Source of the DNA: Staphylococcus phage SapYZUs7
Strand: one strand, 5' to 3'
Sequence record: OQ828659.1
Length of the DNA: 43,682 nt
Part shown: piece after piece, positions 25,477-26,387 of the stretch
Position numbering within the stretch: the stretch's first letter is position 1
How the letters are laid out: each line of letters opens with the position of its first letter
Made by a program: the position numbers and the translations under genes
Notes under the pieces: model-generated
Told to the model about the DNA's origin: nothing
Database searches by the model: none
The model's input: the letters and a program-made list of their open reading frames with translations, nothing else

Positions 25477-26121
25477 ATGGCAGTAAAACATGCAAGTGCG
25501 CCAAAGGCGTATATTAACATTACTGGTTTAGGTTTCGCTAAATTAACGAAAGAAGGCGCGGAATTAAAATATAGTGATATTACAAAAACAAGAGGATTAC
25601 AAAAAATTGGTGTTGAAACTGGTGGAGAACTAAAAACAGCTTATGCTGATGGCGGTCCAATTGAATCAGGGAATACAGACGGAGAAGGTAAAATCTCATT
25701 ACAAATGCATGCGTTCCCTAAAGAGATTCGCAAAATTGTTTTTAATGAAGATTATGATGAAGATGGCGTTTACGAAGAGAAACAAGGTAAACAAAACAAT
25801 TACGTAGCTGTATGGTTCAGACAAGAGCGTAGAGACGGTACATTTAGAACAGTTTTATTACCTAAAGTTATGTTTACAAATCCTAAAATCGATGGAGAAA
25901 CGGCTGAGAAAGATTGGGATTTCTCAAGTGAAGAGGTTGAAGGTGAGGCACTTTTCCCTTTAGTTGATAATAAAAAGTCAGTACGTAAGTATATCTTTGA
26001 TTCAGCTAACATGACAAATCATGATGGAGACGGTGAAAAAGGCGAAGAGGCTTTCTTAAAGAAAATTTTAGGCGAAGAATATACTGGAAACGTGACAGAG
26101 GGTAACGAAGAAACTTTGTAA
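25477..26121 (+). CDS. Major tail protein
   Basis: 214 aa. Position. Followed by the chaperone pair and tape measure gene. Confidence 0.75.
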   Translation: MAVKHASAPKAYINITGLGFAKLTKEGAELKYSDITKTRGLQKIGVETGGELKTAYADGGPIESGNTDGEGKISLQMHAFPKEIRKIVFNEDYDEDGVYEEKQGKQNNYVAVWFRQERRDGTFRTVLLPKVMFTNPKIDGETAEKDWDFSSEEVEGEALFPLVDNKKSVRKYIFDSANMTNHDGDGEKGEEAFLKKILGEEYTGNVTEGNEETL

Positions 26122-26387
26122 CAAAACCGGCTTCATCGGAAACTGCGGTAAAGTCGGTTAATATACCAGATAGCATTAAAACACTTAAAGTTGGCGACAC
26201 ATACGATTTAAATGTTGTAGTAGAGCCATCTAATCAAAGTAAGTTATTGAAATACACAACAGATCAAACGAATATTGTATCAATCAATAGTGATGGTCAA
26301 GTTACTGCGGAAGCACAAGGCATTGCTACGGTTAAAGCAACAGTTGGTAATATGAGTGACACTATAACAATAAATGTAGAAGCATAA
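26106..26387 (+). CDS. Ig-like (Big_2-type) domain in the -1 frame, without its own start; putative frameshift extension of the major tail protein
   Basis: Frame open from 26106, overlapping the last 5 codons of the tail gene. Encodes ...IPDSIKTLKVGDTYDLNVVVEPSNQSKLLKYTTDQTNIVSINSDGQVTAEAQGIATVKATVGNMSDTITINVEA. No in-frame ATG/GTG with SD. Confidence 0.5.
   Translation, partial: RRNFVTKPASSETAVKSVNIPDSIKTLKVGDTYDLNVVVEPSNQSKLLKYTTDQTNIVSINSDGQVTAEAQGIATVKATVGNMSDTITINVEA

Follow-up and report, generated by a model that had tools for sequence, protein, structure and literature searches.

The stretch of DNA analysed here, referred to as the window, is the 43,682-nucleotide sequence record OQ828659.1 of Staphylococcus phage SapYZUs7. 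Our subject is its major tail protein (MTP) gene and an immunoglobulin-like (Ig-like) domain that is encoded directly behind it in the -1 frame. The MTP (tail tube protein) gene occupies positions 25477..26121 of the + strand, appears in the list of open reading frames (ORFs) as a zero-frame product of 214 aa, and ends with GAA GAA ACT TTG TAA, the stop codon lying at 26119-26121. Profile searches matched the product to TIGR01603 maj_tail_phi13 (E = 6e-67) and to PHROG_88 (E = 4e-57) and, together with the Foldseek matches described below, identify it as a tail tube protein. The gene stands in the order head-tail connector genes, MTP, tail chaperone and tape measure.

A tail protein gene and an Ig-like domain in the -1 frame

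A TAA at 26103-26105 closes the -1 frame, which from 26106 stays open as far as a TAA at 26385-26387, a run of 93 codons that overlaps the MTP frame over 26106-26121, 16 nt only. The original prediction had placed the MTP stop at 26119-26121 and the opening of the -1 frame at 26106, and translation of the ORFs bears out all of these coordinates. The 93-aa translation matched the Pfam family Big_2 (PF02368), a bacterial Ig-like domain, with an E value of 6.8e-13 and a score of 48.8 bits against a cut-off of 22.8 bits. The match spans profile positions 1-76 of 79 and residues 14-88 of the translation, corresponding to 26145..26369 of the + strand in the -1 frame. A complete Big_2 domain in an alternative frame of AT-rich DNA is far beyond chance.

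This reading frame lacks the signals by which translation could begin within it. The earliest ATG, GTG or TTG codon, the TTG at 26247, lies midway through the domain; no such start occurs in the -1 frame across 26106-26246, and no GGAGG-like Shine-Dalgarno (SD) sequence was found upstream of TTG 26247 or before any other candidate start of the Ig ORF. Since the domain starts near 26145, it begins some 100 nt 5' of the sole start codon. The claim that a Big_2 domain of about 90 aa lies here with neither a start nor an SD sequence of its own thus holds. The locus therefore shows the configuration expected of a programmed frameshift: two ORFs overlap, and the second, in the -1 frame, lacks an initiation signal of its own.

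If ribosomes passed from the MTP frame into the -1 frame at the MTP stop, the trans-frame extension (26118..26387, + strand) would add 89 aa plus a stop, made up of the linker VTKPASSETAVKS followed by the Ig-like domain. The conceptual fusion comprises 303 aa and 33.2 kDa, or 33,079 Da by mass calculation without the initiator Met. It reads ...NEETL-VTKPASS... at the junction, with the predicted tryptic junction peptide ILGEEYTGNVTEGNEETLVTKPASSETAVK, in which the K-P bond stays uncleaved. AlphaFold2 modelled the Ig domain (residues ~225-303) with a predicted local distance difference test (pLDDT) score of 86-92 and the linker (residues 205-222) as disordered. Foldseek searches with this model retrieved the tail tube proteins lambda gpV, T5 pb6 and that of mycobacteriophage Douge, as well as Big_2 domains at a root-mean-square deviation of 1.8-2.3 Å; the C-terminal Ig domain of lambda gpV (2l04) was also matched. 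A profile search against PDB sequences returned no match. A C-terminal Ig-fold domain joined by a linker to a tail protein is the architecture of the siphophage MTP-Ig class (Fraser et al. 2006). Judging from these sequence features and those that follow, we consider it likely that ribosomes make the Ig domain as part of a -1 frameshift fusion with the MTP.

Selection on the Ig frame and its fused homologues

We collected 97 related loci, 80 of which are split between two frames as in the window and collapse to 18 distinct junction-plus-Ig sequences. All 80 split loci, down to about 88% MTP identity, keep the MTP stop and the -1 arrangement, and in every one of the 18 distinct sequences the -1 ORF has the exact length of 273 nt, with zero indels or stops. 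When these were compared with the window by the Nei-Gojobori method, the ratio of non-synonymous to synonymous substitution rates (dN/dS) ranged from 0.4 to >1 for the two non-Ig frames; for the Ig frame, in which as many as 34 synonymous changes were counted, it was 0.07-0.27. Codons 16-44, which lie 5' of TTG 26247, gave a dN/dS of 0.05-0.5 (in locus L077, 10 synonymous vs 3 non-synonymous changes), and the linker codons 2-15 showed weaker protein-level constraint. By this substitution pattern the Ig ORF appears to be translated, and from a point 5' of its sole start codon. Coding-type selection on the trans-frame ORF is thus found together with conservation of the junction itself, as is characteristic of programmed frameshifting.

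Comparison with homologues links the Ig domain with the MTP. The two ORFs match adjoining parts of a single profile, PHROG_88 'major tail protein' (291 positions), of which the MTP accounts for positions 13-220 and the -1 ORF for 219-287; this assigns the Ig domain to the MTP. Searches with the conceptual fusion returned in-frame MTP-Big_2 fusions of 287-301 aa from prophages of S. delphini, S. chromogenes, S. pseudintermedius and S. simulans (96-99% coverage, 46-50% identity), and phages vB_SpsS_QT1 and 2638A also encode an in-frame fusion. It had been anticipated that the domain belongs to the MTP and that homologous phages might carry the two parts in one frame; both expectations are confirmed. 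These staphylococcal proteins are true homologues with the same layout as here, namely a TIGR01603/PHROG_88 core, a short linker and a C-terminal Big_2 domain, followed by a terminator. They differ in being single ORFs that need no recoding, so that every subunit bears the Ig domain, whereas at the present locus a stop codon and a -1 frame change intervene and only a fraction of subunits should bear it.

In other relatives the MTP core occurs without an Ig domain, as in Mammaliicoccus phage phi6229, several coagulase-negative staphylococci and Macrococcus. An out-of-frame Ig domain was sought in more divergent lineages and none was found; short MTPs with no downstream Ig ORF were seen in S. 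americanisciuri, S. pragensis, S. borealis, S. pseudoxylosus, S. hominis, Macrococcus and Mammaliicoccus phi6229. Given the lack of divergent split lineages, the split arrangement seems to be confined to the clade of S. aureus and S. schweitzeri.

The protein termini offer a separate observation. The in-frame fusions of S. pseudintermedius and S. delphini phages (a QT1-like IMG/VR contig, L096, together with P0024 and P0026) end in ...EETL* (GAGGAAACTTTATAA), and the short MTP of the window ends in GAAGAAACTTTGTAA (26107-26121), so that the last four residues are the same and the 15 nt are nearly so. The resemblance suggests one of two things: an insertion or displacement of the Ig module with respect to a C-terminal tag that stayed conserved, or a functional importance of a C-terminal EETL.

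The existence of Ig-less relatives, which include the phi6229 protein, those of several coagulase-negative staphylococcal prophages and two loci described below (L091 and L101), is what would be expected if the Ig ORF were an untranslated remnant, either a module that landed out of frame or a former in-frame fusion that gained a stop and a frame change. The viability of SPP1 virions that lack the extended form of their tail protein (PMC8718954) is in keeping with such a loss, as is a frame-breaking insertion in phage phiSa119 (L004, NC_025460). At the equivalent of window position ~26175 this phage carries an extra T, which turns GCATTAAAA into GCATTTAAAA, makes a TAA in the Ig frame and leaves the remainder of the domain in the zero frame of the MTP, downstream of two stops. 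A decaying remnant is at odds, however, with a dN/dS of this size in the Ig frame only, with the intact ORF in all 18 distinct sequences, and with the conservation of both the slip motif and the hairpin described below, and we regard this explanation as unlikely. Two near-identical IMG/VR contigs (L085 and L090) carry premature stops in the MTP itself, one through an extra A in an A-run and the other through a stop at codon 52; these are probably assembly errors of draft genomes.

Still less probable, in our assessment, is a free Ig protein whose translation begins at TTG 26247 or at a non-canonical ATT or ATA codon. The model for this reading is Triavirus 3A, like the present phage an S. aureus temperate siphophage with an Ig-like protein encoded directly after its MTP gene. 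There, in contrast to this locus, the protein has a separate gene with a strong SD sequence and an ATG of its own and was detected as a free 15.86-kDa species by matrix-assisted laser desorption/ionization (MALDI) mass spectrometry (PMC5923470). It shares 29% identity over 51 aa with the Ig domain examined here. Annotation pipelines have also called ORFs of 46 to 101 aa at this locus. The example of 3A shows what signals for independent expression look like, and such signals are absent here, where neither a canonical start in 26106-26246 nor an SD-like sequence before the candidate starts is present. The TTG corresponds to residue 258 of the fusion, so that its product would be missing the first four β-strands of the AlphaFold2 model (residues 227-250), and the codons 5' of it are under purifying selection. 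Moreover, the homologues are fused rather than free, and a terminator ties the ORF to the MTP. On the strength of the missing start and SD sequence and of selection 5' of the TTG, independent initiation was rejected.

The terminator in question is a hairpin-and-T-tract structure identified by a terminator scan at 26387..26414 (+ strand), directly after the Ig stop. The MTP stop is not followed by such a terminator, and in the fused or Ig-less relatives an analogous GC hairpin is found directly after the MTP stop. Its placement puts the Ig ORF inside the MTP cistron unit. A second terminator-like hairpin and T-tract occurs in the window at 25433-25462, within the end of the preceding gene and just 5' of the SD sequence and ATG of the MTP gene. 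Terminator-like structures flanking the MTP(-Ig) cistron could set transcript level or stability.

Public annotation treats the locus differently. RefSeq and GenBank list a 46-aa TTG-start ORF (26247..26387, + strand) as 'Ig-like domain-containing protein', and in the records of identical sequence no frameshift is annotated here; they show the 46-aa fragment or nothing. Other pipelines called versions of the fragment that are 70, 74, 79 or 101 aa long, and from these lengths we infer that they use ATT or ATA starts. The 46-aa ORF is a truncated gene-calling artefact.

The proposed slip site and the downstream hairpin

Because there are stops in both frames, a shift from the MTP into the Ig frame is confined to 26106-26121 (AAC GAA GAA ACU UUG UAA). 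Within this overlap the only invariant element is TTTGTA, made up of U_UUG and the initial UA of the stop codon, which is shared by 18/18 distinct junctions and is unchanged despite adjoining upstream deletions of 3, 9 and 24 nt and substitutions on both sides. The proposed -1 shift site, U_UUG_UAA, extends over 26115..26121 (+ strand) and would place UUG (Leu) in the P site and the stop in the A site, GUA (26118-26120) being the next codon read. The A-site codon is UAA or UAG in all variants, locus L084 having an MTP stop TAG instead of TAA. The codon 5' of UUG varies (ACU, UCU or AAU), which makes a conserved tandem slip of the X_XXY_YYZ type unlikely, and this type of slip was discarded as the conserved mechanism.

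The invariance of TTTGTA fits the slip first proposed for this site, in which the P-site tRNA-Leu would move from UUG onto UUU with a stop codon in the A site. We favour, with moderate confidence, this specific step, stimulated by the stop codon and the hairpin.

The candidate stimulator is an RNA hairpin at 26125..26159 (+ strand), which consists of 9 bp, a 1-nt bulge on each side, 4 bp and a 7-nt loop and begins 6 nt 3' of the slip codon. With UUG in the P site, ribosome geometry would bring the foot of the stem to the mRNA entry channel. The predicted minimum free energy is -15.9 kcal/mol (z = -4.97), and 1/200 shuffled sequences was as stable. The structure is kept in 9/9 distinct junctions, where 97% of alignment cells are paired, compared with <=46% for slid partners; one pair varies on both sides and four vary on a single side. 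In L088, 12/35 nt differ and 12/13 pairs are kept (P ~0.003-0.006 under random substitution), and the linker peptide differs. A stop codon in the A site and a hairpin at short spacing, kept through compensatory changes, thus form the kind of stimulatory element that accompanies frameshift sites.

A further possible stimulator is an SD-like GAGGG (GAGGA in most relatives) at 26098..26102 (+ strand), recognized from the sequence and the alignment. The GAGG(G/A) element lies 12 nt 5' of the slip site (9 nt in the variants with the 3-nt deletion), is present in most junction variants and absent from L070 and L091, and also codes for Glu-Gly/Asp. The -1 site of dnaX has an SD-like upstream stimulator, and by analogy GAGG(G/A) may play this part here. 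The conserved hairpin, the possible SD-like element and the terminator after the Ig ORF are additions to the original prediction.

Two loci combine the same signal with a different extension. In L091 (3118-3180) and L101 (2118-2212) the MTP is 80% identical and the Ig domain is missing, TCTTTGTAA is kept, and an unrelated 7-bp hairpin (GUCCGGU/ACCGGAC) is found at the same 6-nt spacing. Their -1 frame adds just a 20- or 29-aa acidic, repeat-like tail (VKSPVEPD(G/E)TEDETE...). One speculative and rather doubtful interpretation is that U_UUG_UA(A/G) with a hairpin 6 nt 3' acts as a -1 'shifty stop' cassette that stands on its own whatever its cargo and is itself selected, for example for a fixed ratio of two tail-tube C-termini. 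If so, it would represent a new bacterial class of single-tRNA-Leu -1 site beside a stop, a mirror image of the +1 sites of prfB and Listeria phages.

Other routes to a fused product were also weighed, namely transcriptional slippage, a tandem slip at A_ACU_UUG and a sequence error that masks an in-frame gene. Locus L070 has A_AAU_UUG, which is compatible with a tandem heptamer; against this, the codon before UUG varies across junctions, and a tRNA-Thr or tRNA-Ser is unable to pair again after a -1 shift. For RNA-polymerase slippage, a run of three Ts is too short. Recurrence of the same arrangement in 80 independent assemblies or isolates excludes a sequencing error, and an indel error in the window was dismissed for the same reason. 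Taken together, these routes appear highly improbable. Stop-codon readthrough was rejected, as the zero frame does not encode the Ig domain and is closed again by a second stop 10 codons on.

Returning to the -1 slip of tRNA-Leu, the proposed course of events is as follows. Most ribosomes stop at the UAA at 26119-26121 and release the 214-aa tube protein, as shown by mass spectrometry of phage 77 virions, described below. In a minority, with the slowly decoded stop codon in the A site, peptidyl-tRNA-Leu on UUG (26116-26118) would slip back onto UUU (26115-26117), the ribosome being held by the hairpin at 26125-26159 and perhaps also by the upstream SD-like GAGG. Decoding would then restart at GUA and add a flexible linker of about 12 aa and the Big_2 domain, yielding the 303-aa, 33-kDa fusion. 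This product would co-assemble in the tail tube, so that on a fraction of the subunits an Ig domain would face outward. To judge from lambda gpV, SPP1 gp17.1* and other phage proteins decorated with Ig domains, it probably makes weak contacts with cell-surface carbohydrate and so aids adsorption.

Published protein data bear on the abundant product. MALDI time-of-flight analysis of purified phage 77 virions recorded the MTP at 23,731 Da (PMC5923470). The calculated mass of the 214-aa phage 77 protein minus Met is 23,730.1 Da, and the agreement indicates that termination at UAA yields the abundant form. The long form is predicted at 33,051 Da in phage 77 and, as given above, at 33,079 Da here. 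The detection of the short form accords with the proposal that the fusion would be a minority product. An anomaly in sodium dodecyl sulfate-polyacrylamide gel electrophoresis of the phi13-family MTP of strain JH1 is a weak hint of the long form. That protein is probably encoded by the same gene as the MTP studied here, to judge from the deposit of the exact 46-aa Ig ORF as ABQ49797.1, presumably from JH9, the sister strain of JH1.

Several points weigh against the proposed frameshift. U_UUG is not a canonical heptamer, and no canonical X_XXY_YYZ heptamer occurs at the junction; U_UUG re-pairs on UUU at 2/3 positions, leaving tRNA-Leu with a wobble mismatch. A literature search found no published precedent for the exact site U_UUG_UAA. 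Covariation in the hairpin is modest and not significant by itself, with 78/500 shuffles reaching the observed score among sequences that are few and closely related; the hairpin overlaps coding sequence, and it matched no Rfam family and no known frameshift element. The phiSa119 insertion may mean either that the Ig domain is dispensable or that a homopolymer was misread in sequencing. No trans-frame protein or junction peptide has been reported, and the phage 77 MALDI table, which covers only peaks assigned to annotated proteins, contains the 23.7-kDa form only (PMC5923470). In favour of the frameshift, the same tail module contains a canonical -1 G/GT frameshift 650 nt downstream.

This second site belongs to the tail assembly chaperone gene (Phage_TAC_19, 26437-26787), whose canonical -1 heptamer A_AAT_TTT lies at 26763-26769. 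The G/GT -1 frame is open to 26975 and runs into a 53-aa ORF at 26814-26975, PHROG_28726 spans both parts, and the public records inspected annotate them as two separate genes. The MTP site is not itself the chaperone G/GT frameshift, as the MTP gene lies upstream and the site at 26763-26769 is distinct.

Related recoding systems, the prophage and significance

It is well established that programmed frameshifting can append Ig-like domains to major capsid and tail proteins (Fraser et al. 2006, cited in PMC9022992; review by Atkins et al. 2016, PMC5009743). As in the present proposal, Bacillus phage SPP1 makes a short MTP, gp17.1, and a longer one, gp17.1*, which acquires an Ig-fold domain when ribosomes change frame at the 3' end of the gene; gp17.1 outnumbers gp17.1* 3:1, and infectivity does not require the extension (PMC8718954; PMC9022992). 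SPP1 differs in using a +1 shift and an FN3 domain, and the two MTP families have no detectable sequence relation. The Tsh proteins of Listeria phages PSA, A118 and A500 are likewise extended by a shift at the last sense codon before the major tail stop, a 'shifty stop' at which the slow A-site stop promotes slippage in the P site (PMC5009743). There the shift is +1 at CCC_UGA with tRNA-Pro, whereas the site described here would be -1 at U_UUG_UAA with tRNA-Leu and has a downstream hairpin. A +1 'shifty stop' of the Listeria/SPP1 type was accordingly rejected, the Ig frame being -1 (= +2) and the last codon UUG; the resemblance is confined to the location of the site at the stop codon.

Lactobacillus phage A2 reportedly shifts at a heptamer-type site, C_CCA_AAA with a stem-loop, rather than at a single codon abutting a stop. 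Its major head and tail proteins, and the capsid protein of phage T3, resemble the present case in that a -1 shift near the end of the gene leads to a C-terminal Ig-like extension (PMC5009743). Lambda gpV and T5 pb6 are similar in combining a tube protein with a C-terminal Big_2 domain (Foldseek E values of 2e-6 to 1e-5 with the fusion model) and dissimilar in that they encode the Ig domain in frame and share no homology at the sequence level. Our literature search found no description of a frameshift here in Biseptimavirus, phiN315 or phage 77; Fraser et al. 2006 may already list it. The locus is probably an unannotated further case of a known type of recoding, with an unusual candidate slip site formed by a single codon beside a stop.

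The window represents an entire prophage, running from an integrase gene (72-1133) through the terminase, portal, capsid and head-tail genes, the MTP, chaperone, tape measure and baseplate genes to sak, chp and scn. The staphylokinase gene (sak) lies at 39438-39929 (Pfam E = 1e-37), the CHIPS gene (chp) at 41009-41458 on the - strand (Pfam E = 6e-62) and the SCIN gene (scn) at 42143-42493 (Pfam E = 1e-55), and their presence at the right end marks an immune-evasion-cluster converting phage. Over the 1.1 kb around the MTP-Ig region, identity is 100% with Staphylococcus phages phiN315 and P1105, and about 45 further temperate siphophages of S. aureus from the genus Biseptimavirus (phage 77 group) reach 99-100%.

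Some records are filed under unrelated hosts, namely OP712489.1 and OP712488.1 ('Pseudomonas phage PSV3'), a Rheinheimera mesophila contig (L009) and MQS95704.1 ('Escherichia coli'). OP712489.1 and the Rheinheimera contig are 100% identical to the S. aureus phage tail region, MQS95704.1 falls in the same 90%-identity cluster, and OP712488.1 is only a ~30%-identity match, typical of PVL-type phages. Contamination or mislabelling is the most likely cause of these host assignments.

The conceptual advance is modest, since frameshift-added Ig domains on phage structural proteins are well established and specialists would not be surprised by another. At the level of annotation, the current description as a plain 214-aa tail tube protein beside a meaningless 46-aa 'Ig-like' fragment would be mended, through recognition of the MTP-Ig unit, in dozens of phage records and probably in many more prophage copies. 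A compact 50-nt non-heptamer -1 signal from a Gram-positive pathogen would, in addition, be useful for mechanistic study. Prophages of the Biseptimavirus/phiSa3 type bear the immune evasion cluster and are among the commonest mobile elements of human S. aureus, and the predicted ~33-kDa constituent of their virions could help them to adsorb to a surface rich in wall teichoic acid.

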